The position numbers and the translations under genes are program-made. A DNA stretch of 64,000 bases from Clostridia bacterium (lineage in GTDB: Bacteria; Bacillota; Clostridia; Christensenellales; CAG-917). The DNA is taken from contig JAVVSR010000001.1 of the NCBI GenBank assembly GCA_036654095.1, positions 239,165 to 303,164 of the forward strand, read 5' to 3'. Below are positions 146-63,985 of the stretch, in pieces. How positions within the stretch are numbered: the stretch's first letter is position 1; every line of letters begins with the position of its first letter. The notes under the pieces are model-generated. The model ran no database searches and was not told the origin of the DNA. It saw only the letters and a program-made list of their open reading frames with translations.

Positions 146-1204
146 ATGAAAAAGTCAAATGACTATTTTAAACAAAGAAATATTGATAATATGATAAAAT
201 TACGTATTATTCGTGAAAATTTGCCAAGTTTTTGTTGCGAATTTTTTATAGGAATTGAAAATAATACAAGTGTTTTGACTAGGTTGAATTACGCATATGA
301 TTTACGTATTTTTTTCTTTTATTTAACAACTCGTGTTTCAATTTTCAAACAAATTGCAGTTGAAAATTTTACTATTAACGATTTAAAAAAAGTAACAACA
401 ACACATTTAGAGTTATTTATTGATTTTTTATCATATTACACTTTTAATAACAGAAGTTATACCAATGAAAACAAAGGAAAAGCGCGTAAATTATCTACGG
501 TACGGGCTATGTTTAAGTATTTTTATAACAAAGATTATTTATCATCAAATCCGTCAGCAAAAATCAATATGCCAAAAATAAACGACATAGAAATAGTTAG
601 GCTTGAAACCGACGAAGTTGTTAATCTTTTAAACATTGCCGAGTTTGGCGGAAGCGGATTGACCAAACGTCAAGAAGCGTATCATGAGCGCACATATTTG
701 CGCGATACCGCCCTGTTGACATTGTTTTTAGGCACAGGATTACGTATTTCCGAGTGCGTAGGATTAAACATAAACGACATCGATTTTAGCACAAATGGAT
801 TTATAATTACACGCAAAGGCGGAAACAAGGTTATACTTTATTTTTCAAATGAAGTGGCGCAATCACTTAAGGACTATTTAGATGCGCGCAAAAATGACGG
901 TTCACCAAAAAATGAACCTGCCCTATTTTTATCGTTGCAAAATAAACGAATTTCAACACGCGCTGTTCAAAATTTGGTTAAAAAGTATAGTCAAATTATT
1001 GCGCCATTAAAAAATATTTCGCCACATAAATTACGCAGTACTTATGGAACTACGCTCTATCGTGAAACGGGCGATATTTATGTTGTTGCCGAAGTTTTGG
1101 GACATCGTGACGTAAATACAACAAAGAAGCATTACGCGGCAATGAGTGACGATATTCGCAGAGATGCCGCCCGAAAAGTTACTTTACGTGATAAAAACGA
1201 ATAA
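146..1204 (+). CDS. Tyrosine site-specific recombinase, XerC/XerD-like
   Basis: Tyrosine-recombinase catalytic signatures are visible in the ORF: GLRISE (Arg), HKLRST (His-x-x-Arg) and LGHRDVNTTKKHY (His and Tyr nucleophile). An aagga SD lies just upstream of the ATG. Confidence 0.85.
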   Translation: MKKSNDYFKQRNIDNMIKLRIIRENLPSFCCEFFIGIENNTSVLTRLNYAYDLRIFFFYLTTRVSIFKQIAVENFTINDLKKVTTTHLELFIDFLSYYTFNNRSYTNENKGKARKLSTVRAMFKYFYNKDYLSSNPSAKINMPKINDIEIVRLETDEVVNLLNIAEFGGSGLTKRQEAYHERTYLRDTALLTLFLGTGLRISECVGLNINDIDFSTNGFIITRKGGNKVILYFSNEVAQSLKDYLDARKNDGSPKNEPALFLSLQNKRISTRAVQNLVKKYSQIIAPLKNISPHKLRSTYGTTLYRETGDIYVVAEVLGHRDVNTTKKHYAAMSDDIRRDAARKVTLRDKNE

Positions 1205-53752: not shown

Positions 53753-54107
53753 CTTTGCTAATTTCCTTTTCGCTGATTTCCTTTAACAGTTTATCAATTT
53801 TCATTCCATACTCAATGCTGTCATCAATATAAAAAGCCAATTCAGGAATATTTCGAATGTTCATAAGTACTTTCAACTCATTGCGGAAAAAACCAGATGC
53901 GTTGTTTATAACCTTTAAAGCCTCAACCTTATTTTCGATATTAAGCATACTAATGTAAACTTTGCTAAATTTCAAATCCGATGTAGTTGTGACCTTTGTA
54001 ACACTTATCATCCCACCTTGCAAACGTGGGTCATTAAGTTTTTGGTTAATAATACCTGCGAGTTGTTTTTCTATTTCCGAATCAATGCGGTTAATTTTAC
54101 TAATCAT
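53745..54107 (-). CDS. rbfA: Ribosome-binding factor A
   Basis: RIDSEIEKQLAGIINQKLNDPRL...VT.V..T.DL..AKVY pattern. The start was set at MISKINR (ATG 54105-54107), overlapping the end of infB. Confidence 0.9.
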   Translation of the reverse strand: MISKINRIDSEIEKQLAGIINQKLNDPRLQGGMISVTKVTTTSDLKFSKVYISMLNIENKVEALKVINNASGFFRNELKVLMNIRNIPELAFYIDDSIEYGMKIDKLLKEISEKEISKDD

Positions 54108-57033
54108 TAATTTGCTCCATAGTAAAGGCTTCGATAACGTCGCCCTCTTTAATATCATTGTAGTTAGTTATGCCCATACCACATTCATAGCCTTTTGCGA
54201 CTTCTTTGACGTCGTCTTTAAAACGCTTTAAGCTATTGAGTTCGCCTTCAAAAATAAACGTGTTGTCGCGATAAAGCCTAATTTTTGCAGTACGGATAAT
54301 TTTGCCGTCAGTAACGTATGCCCCTGCGATTGAACCAACGCCAGTAATTTTGTATACTTGACGAATTTCGGCATTACCAAGCGAAACTTCCTTAAATTTA
54401 GGAGCAAGCATACCCTTAATTGCCTTTTCGACATCGTCAATGGCGTCATAAATAATGCGATACAAACGAATATCAATATTATCTCGTTCGGCGTTAGCTT
54501 TAGCGTTGACATCTGCGCGGACGTTAAATCCAATAATAATTGACCCTGACGTGTTTGCGAGCATTACATCTGACTCGTTAATTGCGCCGACAGCGCCGTG
54601 GATAACAACAATTTTGACTTCATCATTTGAAAGTTTAACAATAGATTGCTTAACAGCCTCAACGCTACCTTGAACGTCTGCTTTAATAATAATATTAAGC
54701 GACTTCGTTACGCCCTTTTGAATTTGAGCAAATATATCTTCAAGCGATGCGGTAGGTTTAGCAATATTCATATCAATACGTATTTTTTGTTGACGTTCGG
54801 TAGCGACTTGTTTTGCAAGTTTTTCATCTTGAACAACCATAATTGGGTCACCTGCGTTAGGTACTTCCGAAAATCCTAAAACAGAAACAGGTATTGAAGG
54901 CCCTGCAACTTTTGTAGCGCGACCTTTGTCATCAATCATTGCGCGAATTTTACCAACACAAATGCCTGCAACTACAAAGTCGCCAACGTGCAACGTGCCA
55001 TTTTGAACAAGCACCGTAGCAAGAGGGCCTTTGCCTTTATCAAGCCTAGCTTCAATAATTGAGCCACGAGCTTGACGGTCGGCATTTGCCTTTAAGTCAA
55101 GTATTTCGGCAACAAGTAAAATAGTTTCAAGCAATTTATTAACATTTTCGCCCGTTTTTGCGGAAACATAAACGACAGGAGTTTCTCCACCCCATTCTTC
55201 GGGTACGATTCCATATTCGGTAAGTTTTTGTAAAACTTTTTCGGGTTGCGCGGCGGGCTTATCAATTTTATTTACAGCAATAATTATTGAAACGCCTGCT
55301 TGTTTTGCGTGGTTAATAGCTTCAATAGTTTGAGGCATAACACCATCGTCGGCAGCAACAACAATAATAGCAATATCGGTAACTTGCGCGCCTCTCATAC
55401 GCATTGCAGTGAAAGCCTCGTGGCCGGGAGTATCTAAAAATGTAATAGGCTTATTATTAAGCGAAACGGTATATGCGCCAATGTGCTGCGTAATACCTCC
55501 TGCTTCGCCTTGCGTAACGTTTGTTTTTCGTATGCAATCTAATAGCGATGTCTTGCCATGGTCGACGTGCCCCATAATAGTAACAACGGGAGGACGCGTA
55601 CAATAGTTATCCCCGTCATCAATATCGCTAACTTTTTCAATATCGTCCAAAATATCTTCGGCTGTTTTTTCGGGTTCGTATGTTAGCTTAACGCCAAATT
55701 CGCCAGCTACCAAATCAGCAGTATCAAAGTCAATAACGTCATTGATTGTCTTCAAGATACCTAAAAGCATTAACTGTTTTAAAATTTCGCCACCTGTTTT
55801 ACCTATTTTCTCACTAAGTAGTTTAATCGGAATAATACCCGCTGTGACAACTGCGTTTTCAATTTTAGTTGAAGTAGGTTGTATAAATTCGTTCTTTTTT
55901 GGGCGACGTTTAAGATGACGGCTTGTTTCGCTTCCATCTTCATCAATAATAATAGGGTCGGTTACGATAAAGCCTTTACGGATAAGCGCGCGTTTATTTT
56001 GCGACTTTCTATCTTCCATCTGCTGTTGAGCGGGAGATTTTTTTATACCTGTTTTATTTGCAAAGTTTTTAGTAGGTTGAGGAATAATTGGAGCAGCGGC
56101 AGTAAAACCAAATTTTCCGCCACTACTTTGTTGTGGACGAGATTGACCGCCTTGATAGCCTGCGCCTTGCGGACGAGGATTATTTCCTTGATAGCCTGCG
56201 CCTTGCGGACGTGGGTTATTTCCTTGATAGCCTGCCCCTTGCGGACGAGGATTATTTCCTTGATAGCCTGCGCCTTGCGGACGTGGATTATTCCCTTGAT
56301 AACCTGCGCCTTGTGGACGAGGATTATTTCCTTGATAACCTGCGCCTTGCGGACGAGGATTATTCCCTTGATAGCCTGCGCCTTGCGGACGTGGGTTATT
56401 TCCTTGATAGCCCGCGCCTTGCGGACGTGGGTTATTCCCTTGATAGCCTGCGCCTTGCGGACGTGGATTATTATTCTGATAGCCACCCTGTTGCGGAGGA
56501 CGGGGTTGATTACCTTGATAATCTGCGCCTTGTGGACGTGGCTGACCGTCACGCGGAGGACGGTTTTCTTTTTTCGGTGTATTATCAAAAATGCGTGTTT
56601 GAATGTTTTCTTGAGGAGTTTTGTCAGCAACTTCAACAATTTCTTTCGCTACAACAACGGTTTCTTCCTTTTTTGGAGTAGCGACAACCTCGGGCGCAAC
56701 AACAGTAGCAGTCGCGATTGGTTTTTCAATGACGACTTCAACCTTTTTCGGCTCGGGAATAGGCTCAACCTTAACTTCCTTAATCGGTTCAATTACTTTT
56801 ACATTAACTTGCGCCGCTTCAACTGCCTGCTTTTGTTCAGCAAGCGCTCTAGCCTGTTCAAGTATAGCCAGTTTTTCCGACTTGATGTCAAGCAGAGATT
56901 GAGTTAAACCGCTAAGTTTTGATTTTACCTCCTTGGCTTGTTCAATTACAGGTGCAATACGCTTCGCCTTAAACTCCGAAAGCGCCTTGATACCGCCAAG
57001 CTCAGATTGGTTATTGTTTGTTTTTTCTGACAT
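54100..57033 (-). CDS. infB: Translation initiation factor IF-2 with an expanded repeat-rich N-terminal region
   Basis: G domain [23 protein letters not shown] and NKID, plus conserved domains II to C2. The N-terminal region contains a 12-aa tandem repeat. Confidence 0.97.
56152..56475 (-). repeat. Nine tandem 36-nt in-frame repeats inside infB encoding (G/N)[11 protein letters not shown]
   Basis: Period-36 units were read directly from the sequence. The peptide units are identical, while the DNA units differ only at synonymous positions. Degenerate copies extend the array to 56116-56547. Confidence 0.95.
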
Positions 57034-58751: not shown

Positions 58752-59237
58752 TTATTTAAAGTTAATTGTTTGTGTGGCTTTTTTAATATTGTCAAACATA
58801 ACAACATACGTATTCGTAACAGGCTTTGCTTTTTGCACGGTTTCCACAATGCGAACGCTATCCGTCATAACTTCGTCAACAATGCCACTAATTTTTTTAA
58901 CACCATTTACAGGCTGAATAAAAGAAACATCGACATTTTTGCCAAAACAACGTCTAAAATCATCAAAGTTTTTAAGCGGCCAGTCTAAACCCATTGACGA
59001 AACCTCAAGCGTATAAGGACGGTCATCTAAATAGTTGATATCATCTAACGGGCTGTCAATAGCCTTATGAACATCCTCACAGTCCTTTAAACTCATTATG
59101 CCATTGGGCTTAAAAATAATAACAGTCACGGTATCAATGCCATAAGGTTTATGAAGCTTCACATAAACTAGCTCATAGCCAAGACTTTCAACAATCGGCC
59201 TGACACAATTTTCAATTTTAATCAAATCGTTTTCCAT
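58752..59237 (-). CDS. rimP: Ribosome maturation factor RimP
   Basis: Pattern LGYELVYV...LEVSSMGLDWPLK. It is the first gene of the rimP-nusA-infB operon. Confidence 0.9.
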   Translation of the reverse strand: MENDLIKIENCVRPIVESLGYELVYVKLHKPYGIDTVTVIIFKPNGIMSLKDCEDVHKAIDSPLDDINYLDDRPYTLEVSSMGLDWPLKNFDDFRRCFGKNVDVSFIQPVNGVKKISGIVDEVMTDSVRIVETVQKAKPVTNTYVVMFDNIKKATQTINFK

Positions 59238-59253
59238 AGTTTACCGCCCTTTC

Positions 59254-59286
59254 AAAAAGTTAGAGTGGACTCGAAAGCCCACTCCA
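59254..59286 (-). promoter_or_regulatory. Terminator-like leader hairpin (possible attenuator) upstream of rimP
   Basis: The minus-strand RNA UGGAGUGGGCU-UUCG-AGUCCACUCUA forms an 11-bp stem (including G-U pairs) capped by a UUCG tetraloop. It is followed by AC and UUUUU (59254-59258), about 17 nt before the rimP ATG. Confidence 0.45.
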
Positions 59287-59311
59287 CACTTACTGTTATT
59301 CTAGCATAGAT

Positions 59312-59340
59312 ATAATAACATATTATTCGTTTACTTGCAA
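59312..59340 (-). promoter_or_regulatory. Candidate sigma-A promoter of the rimP-nusA-infB operon
   Basis: On the minus strand: TTGCAA (59335-59340), a 17-nt spacer ending in TGt (extended -10), then TATTAT (59312-59317). Confidence 0.4.
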
Positions 59341-59554
59341 GCAATTTAAGGGGTTTTTAATATAATTACTAGCAAATACGACAAATATTGTATATAAGTT
59401 ATTGCATATTTGCCAAGTTATCGTTAAAATTTTAAAAAGAAGTTGGGCAACTTAATACAAAAATACAAAAAGCGCTTTAAAAACATTGTTTTTATACATA
59501 AAACATTGTTTATGCTTGCAAGGTATTTTAAATGAAAAAAAATTGTACTATTAT

Positions 59555-61324
59555 TTAAAGCAATTCAGCTAGTTTTAAAAAACATTTTGCAGTAGCTAGC
59601 GCATCATCAATAGCTTGGTGCGCATTTTCAATCGATACATCAAAATATTTACAAACCGCTGCAAGATTATTTTTTGGTAACCTTAATTTAGTTTGCGCCA
59701 AAACTAAAGTATCCATAACATCATTGTCAAATTTATATCCATACGACTTTGCATATCGATATAAAATCGGCAAATCATATGAAATTATATTGTGTCCAAC
59801 TAGCACGGCGCCGCGTGAAAACTTAAAAAAATCTGGCAATATATTTTCAAATTCCGGCGCGGATAAAACCATATCGTCTGTAATTTTGTGAATGTTAGTG
59901 CTTTCTTCCGGAATATGGCACATTGGATTGACATAAGAAGAAAACGTTTCAACAATTCTTCCGTCGGATATTTTAACCGCGCCAATTTGTACTATCGAAA
60001 CGGTTTTAACATCTAAACCAGTCGTTTCAAAGTCAAAAACAACAAATGTTTTGCTTTTTAAAAATGTTGAACTCTCTTTTTCCCTGTCAATAAACTCCGA
60101 AATATCCGCTTGTTCTATTTCACGGTATTTTTCAGGAACAACTTTTTGATAGCTCGAATTTTCCGTTCTAATAGGCGCCGCTGTATTTATTGTTGAAAAA
60201 TCAATTTCCGCTAACCATATTTTATCGACGTACATCTGTAAAATATCAAAATTACTGTCACTTTTTTTAAGCTTTCCCGAGCAAATTACCTCGGCGTCAT
60301 CTTTTAAAAACTTATTAAGTTTCTCATTATTTAAAACTTTTGGAAAACATATTATCGGAAGCGTGCCTGTTGTATCGTTTAAATTAAAGCAATATCGTAC
60401 CAACTTTTCGTCGGTAGTATTGATTTTATATTTCGTTTTTTTACCATCGACTTGACCAAAGTTTTTATTTAAATATTCAAACTTATTTACCCTCGAAACT
60501 TTGCCACAAATAACCGCATTATCCTGTGGTTCTTTTGAATCGGAAATGTACGTCGGACGACTAAATGGATAACCGCTTCCATATATAGGTTCGCCAACAT
60601 TAACATCTACTTGATGTGACCCTAAAAATAAAGTTATATTATTTGGTTTCATTTCCGTGTCATCAACATCATTCAAATTATCCGTTGAATTAAGTTCAAC
60701 TTGATTAATTCCATTATTATCAAAAGTTACATTTATAACTCTATTTCCAATCATTTTTTCAATATTTTTCTTGATATTTTGATTAATTTGCTTTTTTTCT
60801 GTTGCGCTAGGAACGCGCGTCACATATTCAATATCAATATTCTCAACAAAATTCTCAAGTAAAACATTTTCAAGTTTGCTTTTAAGACTTGGGTCGCTTA
60901 ATATCGAAATCACATTTGCAAATGAAGTTATTGTAACCTTTATGTAATAATCATCTACTATAATATCAATATCGTCAACGGTTAAATATGTCGATAAAAA
61001 AGATTCGTTTTTTGACAAACAATCAATAACTTTGGAACGCACCAATTCAACATCTGCGTACGCCTTGCTAAAACTTGCGGTTATTTTAATGTCATTTGGC
61101 AACAATTTTGAACAAAAATTTAAAACATCTTTAATATCATTATCATTAAATACCGCCTTATTGACCTTGTCATTTGCTAATTTTTTGTCAGAAAGCATAT
61201 CGTATCTAATTAAAAAATAAATACATAGTAGTTTTTTTTCCAAGCTATATTCGGCTTTTAAAAATCGCAAATAAGGATACTTATTGTTTGTTATTTTTTT
61301 AAATTCCTCATCAAACTTTTTCAT
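59555..61324 (-). CDS. PolC-like N-terminal/OB-fold/DEDDh 3'-5' exonuclease protein lacking PHP and polymerase domains
   Basis: The C-terminal ~165 aa carry intact Exo I (VVFDFETTGLD), Exo II (VGHNIISYDLPIL) and Exo III (HQAIDDALATAK) motifs. The central segment ICGKVSRV...FNLNDTTGTLPIICF...LKDDAEVICSGKL...MYVDKI follows the PolC OB-domain pattern. The ORF stops cleanly after the exonuclease domain. The start was set at MKKFDEEF, which has a gagg SD. Confidence 0.6.
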   Translation of the reverse strand: MKKFDEEFKKITNNKYPYLRFLKAEYSLEKKLLCIYFLIRYDMLSDKKLANDKVNKAVFNDNDIKDVLNFCSKLLPNDIKITASFSKAYADVELVRSKVIDCLSKNESFLSTYLTVDDIDIIVDDYYIKVTITSFANVISILSDPSLKSKLENVLLENFVENIDIEYVTRVPSATEKKQINQNIKKNIEKMIGNRVINVTFDNNGINQVELNSTDNLNDVDDTEMKPNNITLFLGSHQVDVNVGEPIYGSGYPFSRPTYISDSKEPQDNAVICGKVSRVNKFEYLNKNFGQVDGKKTKYKINTTDEKLVRYCFNLNDTTGTLPIICFPKVLNNEKLNKFLKDDAEVICSGKLKKSDSNFDILQMYVDKIWLAEIDFSTINTAAPIRTENSSYQKVVPEKYREIEQADISEFIDREKESSTFLKSKTFVVFDFETTGLDVKTVSIVQIGAVKISDGRIVETFSSYVNPMCHIPEESTNIHKITDDMVLSAPEFENILPDFFKFSRGAVLVGHNIISYDLPILYRYAKSYGYKFDNDVMDTLVLAQTKLRLPKNNLAAVCKYFDVSIENAHQAIDDALATAKCFLKLAELL

Positions 61325-62354
61325 TAGTAGCCTCATTTATCATCGCTTCAAATTCCGCCATTATTTTGTCATTTTCAATTACTTTAATTTTTTTACCATT
61401 TTTAAACAAAATCGAATGACCAACGCCACCCGCTACACCAAAATCGGCATCGCCAGCTTCGCCAATTCCATTAACAACACAGCCCATAACAGCGATTTTA
61501 AGCGGCAAATCTAAACTAGCTGTCAATTTTTCAACTTTATTTGCAAGTTCCGCCACGGGGATATTTGTCCTAGCGCACGTGGGACACGCTATAACCTCAA
61601 CACCTTTTTTCAAACCTAAACTAGTAAGCAAAATTTTGCCTGCAATAACCTCTTTAGTAGGCTCGTCCGCAAGCGAAACTCTTATCGTGTTGCCAATACC
61701 GTTTAAAAGCAGCGCGCCAATTCCAACGGAATTTTTAATAATACCACGTTCAAAAGTACCAGCCTCCGTAACTCCGATATGCAATGGATAATCGGAAACT
61801 TCGCTAAACAGTTTATTGGCATTTACCATATTTTTAATGTTTGACGACTTTATGGACACGATAGTATTATAAAAATTAGCTTTTTCAAGAATAGTTATAT
61901 GTTTAAGCGCGCTTTTCACCAAAGCGTCCACGCGAGGTAAATGATTAAATTCACTTTCTAGAGAGCCTTCATTAACACCGATACGTATCGGGATTTCCCT
62001 TTCGCGAAGAAAGTCTGCAACATATTTAACTTTTTGTTCGCCACCGATATTACCCGGATTTATCCTAATTTTACTTGCGCCGTTTTCAGCCGAAAGTATT
62101 GCAAGCTTATAGTCAAAATGGATATCTGCAACAAGCGGAATATGTATGCCTTTCACAATTTCATTTAAAGCAAGCCCTGCGCGCTCGTTATTAACCGAAA
62201 CGCGTACAATGTCACAACCAACGGACTCAAGTTCCAAAATTTGTTTTATGGTTGCAGAAACATCCTCGGTCAACGTATTGCACATCGACTGAACAGTAAT
62301 TGGCGAATTTCCGCCAATAGCTATATTTTTAACTTTAATTTCTCTTGTTTTCAT
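61311..62354 (-). CDS. ispG: 4-hydroxy-3-methylbut-2-en-1-yl diphosphate synthase
   Basis: SPITVQSM, RVSVN, RINPGNIG, and Fe-S cysteines CPTCAR and MGCVVNG. Confidence 0.93.
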   Translation of the reverse strand: MKTREIKVKNIAIGGNSPITVQSMCNTLTEDVSATIKQILELESVGCDIVRVSVNNERAGLALNEIVKGIHIPLVADIHFDYKLAILSAENGASKIRINPGNIGGEQKVKYVADFLREREIPIRIGVNEGSLESEFNHLPRVDALVKSALKHITILEKANFYNTIVSIKSSNIKNMVNANKLFSEVSDYPLHIGVTEAGTFERGIIKNSVGIGALLLNGIGNTIRVSLADEPTKEVIAGKILLTSLGLKKGVEVIACPTCARTNIPVAELANKVEKLTASLDLPLKIAVMGCVVNGIGEAGDADFGVAGGVGHSILFKNGKKIKVIENDKIMAEFEAMINEATNEKV

Positions 62355-62404: not shown

Positions 62405-63985
62405 TTAACTCAACAGATGAAATATATCAACAAATATTGTAAAAGTAAACAATAATACAAGCCCAACCGTATGGATAATTGCCTCAACTTTTCGGTTTAT
62501 TGGTTTCTTTCTAATCCATTCAATAATTGTAAACACGATTTTTGAGCCGTCAAGCGCGGGTAACGGAAGCAAGTTCATAACCGCTAAGTTTGCAGATAGA
62601 ATACAAGTTATATATATCAAGTACGGAAAACCGCCAGTTTGGACGCCTTGACTTACTGTTGATATAACAGTTATAGGACCGCCTGCTGTTTCAAGCCCGA
62701 TTTTACCTGTAATTAACGCGCCAAGTAGAGCGAGGATTTTAAATACAATAAAGAAACTGTACGTAAAACTTCTTCCAAGTGACCTAAAGAAACCTAATTT
62801 TGCGGTATCAAGTTGCCGAGTAAAACCATAATTGTATGTTTCAAGGCCGTTTGGATTTTCAGCGTCGGGACTAACCGATGTATATCGATACTCAGAACTT
62901 ATATATTTTGAGCCAAAATCATGCAAATAATTGCCCTTAAAATCTATAACTGAATTGGGCTTAACAACTATTGGAACAGTAAAGTCTTCGCCGTCGATGG
63001 TTTGCCCAAACAATAATACGTCGTTTTGTTTTAAAGTACTTATCGCGCCATATTCGGCATCTGTCAAAGCAGGAAGAAAAGTATTGTTTATGTGCTTCAG
63101 TCGGTCGCCTTGCTTAATTATTGTAACAAAACATTTAATTTCACTTGTAGAACCATCTGAATTAACCCGTTCATACAAAAGTTCAGTACCGCTTGTCATA
63201 TTTGCTTTTTTTTCAGCAAGTTTTGCATCGCTCATTTTTGAAACTTTTTTACCGTCAATTTCAACGAGTTTATCATTAGACGAAATATCAACCACTTCAT
63301 AGCGTTCATTATTGACTATTTGTAAAAATTGATAAAAACTAGAAGTTGCCGTCGGCGCAACATAGGAATATGCGCCCTTTTTGATAGTAAACTTCATAGT
63401 TTTGCCATTACGCAAAACTTTTATTTCGGCAGTATCTCCACATTTTTCAAACATTTTTGAAAAATCGTCAGACATAAGAATGTGCTTAATTTTCCCGTCA
63501 ACTGAAAGTATAATGTCGCCTTCTTGAACTGTCTGACTATTCGCGGCAACGCTATCGGGATAAATTTTTGAAACGACAGCTACGCTTTCTCCATATGCGC
63601 AAAAGAATATTGTAATAATAATCATTGCGGAAATAAAGTTAAAGAACGCGCCCATAAACAAAACGATAAGACGCTTCCAAGGAGCCTTATTGTTAAAAGC
63701 GGCTGGATTTGATTTATCCTTTTCCTCGTCCTCGCCCTCAAACGCGCAATAACCGCCCAATGGAATTGGACGTATGGAAAATTGTTCGCCACTTTTAAGC
63801 TTCTTTTTAAAGATAGGAGGCCCAAAACCAATAGCAAACTCGTTTATTTGAAATCCTAATTTTTTACCTGCAATATAATGCCCGAACTCGTGCACGACAA
63901 TCATAAACATTAGCGCGCCAAGAGCTACAAGGACATATAAAATACTTGTTAATACGCTCGTAAACGAGCATAGCAATGATAACAT
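62405..63985 (-). CDS. rseP: RIP metalloprotease RseP/RasP (M50) with an enlarged periplasmic/PDZ region
   Basis: HEFGHY in TM1 and NLLPLPALDGSK near the C-terminus. About 330 aa lie between the motifs, which is longer than in typical Firmicute RasP. Confidence 0.88.
   Translation of the reverse strand: MLSLLCSFTSVLTSILYVLVALGALMFMIVVHEFGHYIAGKKLGFQINEFAIGFGPPIFKKKLKSGEQFSIRPIPLGGYCAFEGEDEEKDKSNPAAFNNKAPWKRLIVLFMGAFFNFISAMIIITIFFCAYGESVAVVSKIYPDSVAANSQTVQEGDIILSVDGKIKHILMSDDFSKMFEKCGDTAEIKVLRNGKTMKFTIKKGAYSYVAPTATSSFYQFLQIVNNERYEVVDISSNDKLVEIDGKKVSKMSDAKLAEKKANMTSGTELLYERVNSDGSTSEIKCFVTIIKQGDRLKHINNTFLPALTDAEYGAISTLKQNDVLLFGQTIDGEDFTVPIVVKPNSVIDFKGNYLHDFGSKYISSEYRYTSVSPDAENPNGLETYNYGFTRQLDTAKLGFFRSLGRSFTYSFFIVFKILALLGALITGKIGLETAGGPITVISTVSQGVQTGGFPYLIYITCILSANLAVMNLLPLPALDGSKIVFTIIEWIRKKPINRKVEAIIHTVGLVLLFTFTIFVDIFHLLS

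Follow-up and report, generated by a model that had tools for sequence, protein, structure and literature searches.

What does a bacterial genome keep in the place of its polC gene when the protein encoded there cannot polymerize DNA? The question arises at one locus of a Clostridia bacterium (contig JAVVSR010000001.1 of assembly GCA_036654095.1), within a stretch of 64,000 nucleotides that we call the window throughout this text. The ORF listing and the neighbouring genes confirmed the report of an earlier note, made from the sequence alone, that a single open reading frame (ORF) of 589 aa lies between ispG and rimP and is separated from rimP by a 317-nt spacer. The program-made list gives this minus-strand ORF as 59555..61336 with 593 aa; the ATG at 61324 is the start better supported by the family alignment and yields the 589-aa protein with the N-terminus MKKFDEEF. 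The protein, hereafter the short form, is composed of an N-terminal domain (NTD), an OB fold and a DEDDh 3'-5' exonuclease, and we are highly confident that all three are derived from PolC.

PolC ancestry of the three domains

For the domain and conservation analyses we used an alignment of 43 family members (A1) and a second set of 124 complete representatives. The motifs FDFETTG (D431, E433), GHNIISYD (D517) and HQAIDDA (H569, D574) are all in the translation and Pfam RNase_T matches residues 428-582 with E=2.6e-38, which bears out the earlier description of the exonuclease as intact; the further motifs quoted there (ICGKVSRV, FNLNDTTGTLPIICF, VICSGKL and MYVDKI) are also in the translation. 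The protein ends 15 residues past the Exo III aspartate. The best NCBIfam matches of the exonuclease are two PolC models, residues 417-587 of the query being aligned with positions 415-586 of NF001688. As whole-protein models, these PolC models score 140.4 bits (NF001688, cutoff 873) and 133.1 bits (TIGR01405, cutoff 1043), and the DnaQ domain model TIGR00573 scores 100.1 bits, above its cutoff of 71.5. The family profile matched the exonuclease domain of Thermotoga PolC (2p1j) at 5e-60 and E. faecium PolC at 1.5e-53, compared with 6e-25 for E. coli epsilon, and RNase T, ExoX and YhaM-type OB proteins were matched at lower scores. In a neighbour-joining tree of exonuclease domains, which is crude and has no support values, the short-form sequences make up a single clade whose sister group is the clostridial PolC exonucleases, apart from the Bacilli PolC, DinG-type and proteobacterial DnaQ-like domains.

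The OB fold, assigned by Pfam to residues 313-370, is recognized as tRNA_anti-codon in 41 of the 43 family members. Its PolC-like pattern, noticed earlier by eye, was substantiated by hhalign, in which residues 255-380 aligned with the PolC OB segment at P=2e-14 to 4e-15 (98% probability), and the PDB entries 3f2b and 9qpc match the same stretch. The region ahead of it, left unassigned in the earlier note, matched a Bacilli-dominated PolC set weakly (hhalign P about 0.01). After clostridial PolC N-termini had been added, residues 3-161 aligned collinearly with PolC 4-153 at P=1e-5 (83%), while an OB control gave no match in this comparison. AlphaFold modelled the NTD alone confidently, with a predicted local distance difference test score (pLDDT) of 89 and subdomains at residues 19-106 and 119-169. 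Foldseek returned only weak matches for this NTD-only model, to tandem KH or BON-type repeats such as the KH domains of NusA, in agreement with the prediction of two KH-like subdomains for the PolC NTD (PMC3919608). A direct structural comparison of the NTDs is impossible because no PolC NTD structure has been solved, the domain being unresolved even in the newest PolC structures (PMC12592400). Based on the profile comparison, we assign this region with moderate confidence to the PolC-specific NTD. Between the NTD and the OB fold, pLDDT falls below 50 at residues 193-199 and 209-234, and most relatives are gapped in those columns. For the full-length model, the top structural match is PolC 9qpc. 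The N-terminal and OB parts thus proved related to PolC in the profile comparisons.

The polymerase module is missing altogether. Neither the PHP domain (PF02811) nor the Pol3 core (PF07733, PF17657) has a Pfam match in the protein or in any of the 43 relatives, in line with the earlier observation that PHP, palm and fingers are absent. No palm, thumb, fingers or HhH module was found in the 589 aa; lacking these and the PHP domain, the short form cannot be a polymerase.

The linker between the OB fold and the exonuclease may preserve a trace of what was lost. In PolC, the OB fold and the exonuclease are set apart by about 85 residues of the PHP domain, among them its HxH and ITDH metal motifs, and the rest of the PHP domain and the polymerase come after. 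In the window protein, only 48 residues separate the two domains, with no HxH or ITDH motif among them. In the full profile alignment, three islands of this linker are collinear with the PolC segments KRVELHxHT, VQAFPEAY and YGxExxLVDD, VxPExY pairing with VQAFPEAY and QxxLF with ExxLVDD. This collinearity suggests that the linker is what remains of the N-terminal PHP segment after its collapse, although the linker alone did not align significantly with that segment (P about 0.3). Such a relic would mean that the short form arose from a complete PolC by internal deletion and C-terminal truncation, and is not an ancestral module that predates the fusion.

The same linker carries a putative motif that is clamp-binding-like in form. 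Bacterial beta-clamp-binding motifs have the form QL[SD]LF, and the ordinary PolCs of the fetched loci end in QLSLF, QLTLF, QISLF or QISMF, an end that the truncation removed from the short form. In the short-form family, Qxx[LMIFV][FLM] is found 5-45 residues before Exo I in 104 of the 124 complete representatives (84%) and in 29 of the 43 sequences of A1, typically as QSNLF, QENLF, QTNLF or QVDLF; we estimate the chance expectation in such a stretch at roughly 6%. The motif stretch is modelled with a pLDDT of 66-70 and the VxPExY island just before it with 97.

Distribution, synteny and selection

In a first protein search, the short form aligned over its full length with about 45 clusters of 490-590 aa at 25-50% identity, and where entries of this family have a name, it is just 'exonuclease domain-containing protein' or '3'-5' exonuclease'. 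A HMMER search with a profile of the NTD and OB fold only, clustered at the 50% identity level, gave at least 324 clusters with E<1e-30, and none of the 150 best is longer than 589 aa. In a species scan with one genome per species, the short form was present in about 70 of the best 80 loci, and more than 65 species-level metagenome-assembled genomes (MAGs) of uncultured Clostridia from the gut contain it; their hosts are sheep, goat, yak, chicken, rabbit, mouse and human. The genomes are labelled Clostridia bacterium, uncultured Christensenellaceae or Christensenella, Candidatus Coproplasma, Onthoplasma, Scatosoma, Gallimonas and Subdoligranulum sp. CAG:314, genera that NCBI files under Clostridia or Eubacteriales incertae sedis and that we take to be the order Christensenellales in GTDB. 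We found no description of a PolC form that keeps the exonuclease without the polymerase in the literature searched, and no curated model in Pfam or NCBIfam that describes the short-form protein.

The gene order dxr-rseP-ispG-X-rimP-nusA-ylxR-infB, X being the short gene, is kept where X is only 31-42% identical to the window protein, and ispG-X-rimP-nusA is kept in most of the about 70 species-level loci with the short form. Downstream synteny is broken in some members, since two sheep-gut MAGs (L009 4964-8509, L012 7003-10551) have a gene for a predicted lipoprotein or secreted protein of ~1,180 aa in the place of rimP after the short gene. At ordinary Clostridia loci (L055, L069, L071, L078, L083 and L084), the polC ORF starts directly downstream of ispG and encodes 1,344-1,502 aa where the locus holds the whole ORF, and at the Bacilli-type loci L005 and L007, polC lies directly upstream of rimP. 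Because ispG precedes the ordinary clostridial polC and rimP follows the Bacilli-type polC, the short gene occupies the polC slot.

Matches to 'PolC' proteins of 800-1,020 aa were considered as intermediate forms and rejected, since they proved to be ordinary polC genes whose reading frame is broken by a frameshift or an intron. One such gene, in the MAG GCA_002457835.1 (L007 6839-11072), is divided between an ORF of 368 aa and one of 1,023 aa, most likely because the assembly contains a frameshift or an ambiguous base, and splits of this kind account for the 'short PolC' matches in the first search. In two Bacilli-type loci (L005 10949-11669, also L006), polC is broken exactly at the catalytic PDIDL motif by ~720 nt without an ORF, in which the group II intron domains D1-D4 are matched at 145 bits and D5/D6 at 50 bits. 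This insert, found in two independent assemblies, appears from its domain matches to be an ORF-less group II intron within a replicative polymerase gene.

The short gene is conserved in the manner of a working gene. D431, E433, D517, H569 and D574 are invariant across the 43 aligned sequences, and Exo III is kept in 119 of the 124 complete representatives, in all of which it is followed by a tail of 11-23 residues. On average, two members are 47% identical in the exonuclease, 27% in the OB fold and 20% in the NTD, the last of which parallels the weak conservation already known for PolC NTDs. The ratio of nonsynonymous to synonymous substitution rates (dN/dS), computed for nine ortholog pairs, was 0.05-0.19 over the whole gene, 0.09-0.23 in the NTD and 0.03-0.23 in the exonuclease; most of the pairs are saturated in dS and the values are therefore rough, yet all are far below 1. 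As judged from these ratios, the gene is under purifying selection, a working gene and not a remnant.

The end point of the gene was reproduced in independent assemblies. A comparison of 3,700 nt across ispG, the short gene, its spacer and rimP showed one independent Logan assembly to be identical to the window and a second to differ at 4 positions and to encode an identical short protein, so that the protein is the same in three assemblies. The stop immediately behind Exo III is therefore genuine, and the break or frameshift about which the earlier note had been cautious was not found. The same locus is also present in the NCBI assembly GCA_036655295.1 (contig JAVVQJ010000002.1, 204,695 bp). 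The proposal of that note, a domain-reduced PolC derivative kept under selection, is upheld by the homology of the OB fold and NTD, the exonuclease tree, the polC slot, the dN/dS values and the occurrence in hundreds of lineages; the orthologs in related genomes for which it suggested a test exist, in at least 324 clusters, with dN/dS well below 1 in the nine pairs compared.

Replicative polymerase and candidate role at the fork

If the protein in the polC slot is not a polymerase, which enzyme copies these genomes? By logical necessity, their replicative polymerase is encoded apart from the short gene. We searched the window and 91 fetched loci by tblastn and with a PolC-core HMM, and polymerase domains were found in the ordinary polC loci alone. 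No C-family polymerase was detected in the 64-kb window, where no ORF is long enough or similar, in an extra 17 kb of the contig, or within 6-10 kb of the short gene in about 75 loci. The extra contig sequence holds miaB, mutS, mutL and miaA on one side, just beyond the window start, and rpsB through dxr on the other. Three replicase sets are recognized in bacteria, DnaE1 alone, PolC plus DnaE3, and PolC plus DnaE1 (PMC3919608, PMC12926913), and a DnaE-type subunit occurs in every bacterium analysed (PMC12926913). Clostridia typically have PolC plus DnaE1, some have DnaE1 alone, and the clostridial DnaE1 has the features of a self-sufficient replicase (PMC3919608); loss of PolC has been proposed as a route to DnaE1-only systems (PMC3919608, PMC12926913).

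We propose that the resident polC would have lost the entire PHP domain and polymerase (palm, thumb, fingers, HhH and the C-terminal clamp motif) and kept the NTD, the OB fold and the DEDDh exonuclease. The short protein would then act in trans as a 3'-5' proofreader at the replication fork, removing misincorporated nucleotides for DnaE1, which would be the sole replicative polymerase left in these genomes. Three tethers may hold it there: the NTD could bind the clamp loader, as has been proposed for the PolC NTD (PMC3919608), the OB fold could bind the single-stranded template, and the Qxx[LM]F motif of the linker could bind the beta clamp. The protein would thereby be a functional analogue of E. 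coli epsilon (DnaQ) and, by descent, a fragment of PolC. We give an even chance to this full mechanism, a fork-tethered trans-acting proofreader for DnaE1 in a lineage without a PolC polymerase, of which we infer the partners, the substrate and the loss of the polymerase. Slightly more tentative is the evolutionary claim that a clade of gut Clostridia turned polC into a stand-alone proofreading subunit and replicates with DnaE1 alone, as an intermediate toward DnaE1-only systems.

Several points weigh against this proposal. First, the contig coverage for the polymerase search was about 85 kb of 205 kb, and the clostridial PolC-core profile, of whose 8,000 matches the 120 listed are all Lachnospiraceae-type, has no power on the absence of polC. 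Second, 35 of the 38 real window ORFs of at least 250 aa are on one strand. Strong gene-strand bias usually goes with genomes that have PolC, although this indication is weak and confounded by operons. Third, the clamp-binding-like motif is degenerate in the window's own copy (QADISEF), whose subclade has the form QxxΦx[DE]Φ, one residue longer, so that a clamp-binding motif is uncertain for this protein. Fourth, the binding of the NTD to tau is a proposal even for PolC (PMC3919608). Fifth, the short protein is without the epsilon-like C-terminal peptide for the DnaE PHP domain. At last, the proofreading activity of every family member is a prediction from sequence.

Some of these points would fit an accessory paralog, with a complete or exonuclease-less PolC encoded at another locus and the short protein serving as an extra exonuclease in repair, in Okazaki-fragment processing or in the proofreading of DnaE1 only, none of which implies loss of the PolC polymerase. 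The ~85 kb of contig and the 120 of 8,000 PolC-core matches listed leave room for a polC elsewhere, and the strand bias of the window would be expected. Genomes with two PolC copies exist, and exonuclease-less PolC variants have been reported only in Clostridia, Negativicutes and one extra Thermotogae copy (PMC3919608). However, on this explanation polC must have been duplicated or moved ahead of the truncation, at the root of a very large clade. No close full-length form was found, since none of the best 150 NTD-OB profile matches exceeds 589 aa; among the best 80 GTDB loci there was no second PolC-type locus of a short-form genome, and no locus has a polymerase remnant beside the short gene. 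We regard a paralog of this kind as rather unlikely.

We consider it still less probable that the short form works off the replisome, guided by its OB fold to DNA ends or RNA as a general 3'-5' exonuclease like ExoX, RNase T or YhaM, its location beside rimP-nusA-infB being merely inherited. DEDDh domains do work on both DNA and RNA, the lower-scoring matches of the family profile include proteins of these very types, and the degenerate clamp motif of the window protein would be of no concern. A fork role nevertheless explains better why the poorly conserved PolC NTD has been kept under purifying selection, why 84% of the members have the clamp-binding-like motif, and why the nearest relatives of the exonuclease are the proofreading domains of PolC. 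There is practically no chance that misassembly, a frameshift or the decay of polC explains the short ORF, given independent assemblies that are identical or nearly so, an architecture and end point common to hundreds of lineages, dN/dS far below 1 and no polymerase-coding remnant downstream.

The short-form family may represent a stage of replicase evolution that is still alive today, in which the proofreader has outlived the polymerase. It is also a natural separation-of-function construct for the PolC NTD and OB fold, which are among the domains of PolC that are least understood and evidently retain a use in the absence of the polymerase. Ibezapolstat targets PolC (PMC11963600). If the short-form genomes indeed have no PolC polymerase, abundant gut commensals would be intrinsically insensitive to PolC-specific antibiotics such as this one, which bears on its microbiome-sparing profile (PMC11963600).

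Locus features and relation to known systems

The domains of the short gene and its neighbours are listed in Table 1. The 14-nt overlap of ispG with the start of the short gene is likewise present in L002-L004. The spacer ahead of rimP contains a promoter-like site, TTGGCA-18-TACAAT (59416-59387, minus strand), and, ~100 nt downstream of it, a terminator-like hairpin of 11 pairs with a T run (59286-59261) that ends 24 nt before the rimP start codon. Together, the two elements have the look of a leader attenuator for the rimP-nusA-infB operon; Rfam has no family that matches this leader and spacer or the short gene. Further downstream in this operon, infB (54100-57033, minus strand) contains 10.7 tandem copies of a 36-nt unit at 56150-56538, which encode a recurring 12-residue stretch in the N-terminal region of IF2, with a local GC content of ~50% compared with ~35% for the genome. 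At the other end of the window (146-1204, plus strand) lies a phage-integrase-family gene, one of only three plus-strand ORFs of at least 250 aa in the window, followed by a gene for a 661-aa PadR-domain protein.

Table 1. Coordinates of the short gene, its domains and the adjoining features in the window
Feature	Position	Strand	Basis
Whole gene, polymerase-less PolC derivative (NTD-OB-Exo), 589 aa	59555..61324, including stop	minus	ORF listing, family alignment A1
PolC-type NTD, residues 1-170, two alpha/beta (KH-like) subdomains	60815..61324	minus	hhalign, AlphaFold, Foldseek
Variable linker, residues 171-240, partly disordered, longer in the window's subclade	60605..60814	minus	AlphaFold pLDDT, alignment gaps
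PolC-type OB fold, residues 241-375	60200..60604	minus	hhalign, Pfam, PDB matches
OB-Exo linker, residues 376-423, probable collapsed N-terminal PHP relic (YxxVxPExY island)	60056..60199	minus	Profile alignment
QADISEF, residues 405-411, degenerate copy of the clamp-binding-like motif	60092..60112	minus	Family motif comparison
DEDDh 3'-5' exonuclease, PolC type, residues 424-589	59558..60055	minus	Pfam, NCBIfam, family profile
ispG, upstream neighbour	61311..62354	minus	ORF list; 3' end overlaps short-gene start by 14 nt
rseP	62405-63985	minus	ORF list, upstream of ispG
rimP, downstream neighbour, heads rimP-nusA-ylxR-ylxQ-infB	58752..59237	minus	ORF list
AT-rich spacer ahead of rimP, 317 nt	59238..59554	minus	Promoter-like site and terminator-like hairpin inside

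Compared with PolC, the short form has a homologous NTD, OB fold and DEDDh exonuclease in the same order, with the exonuclease at nearly the same coordinates, and it shares the upstream ispG with clostridial polC and the downstream rimP with Bacilli polC. It differs in the absence of the PHP domain on either side of the exonuclease, of the palm, thumb and fingers, of the HhH module and of the C-terminal QLSLF motif, and in its length of 589 aa (500-590 in the family) against about 1,450 aa for PolC.

DnaQ/epsilon (TIGR00573, TIGR01406; 1J53, 5FKU) is likewise a stand-alone DEDDh exonuclease, and the short form passes the TIGR00573 cutoff. A clamp-binding-type motif, QTSMAF, adjoins the exonuclease in epsilon and a putative one does so in most members of the short-form family, and the proposed job, proofreading in trans for a DnaE-type polymerase, would be the same. 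The motif, however, precedes the exonuclease in the short form and follows it in epsilon. The short form also has the PolC NTD and OB fold ahead of the exonuclease, is without the C-terminal peptide for the PHP domain of alpha, and has an exonuclease nearer to that of PolC (5e-60) than to epsilon (6e-25). DEDDh domains of the same superfamily are fused to other replication or repair modules in DinG with an N-terminal exonuclease (8ZEF) and in the Bacteroidetes DnaE1 with an N-terminal exonuclease; there, the partner is a helicase or a polymerase, and the DinG exonucleases form a separate branch of the tree. The exonuclease-less clostridial PolC variants and the DnaE1-only Clostridia (PMC3919608) come from the same bacterial class as the short form and share with it the theme of a PolC plus DnaE1 system that is being dismantled in some Clostridia. 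Those variants keep the polymerase and lose the exonuclease, and the short form is their reciprocal.

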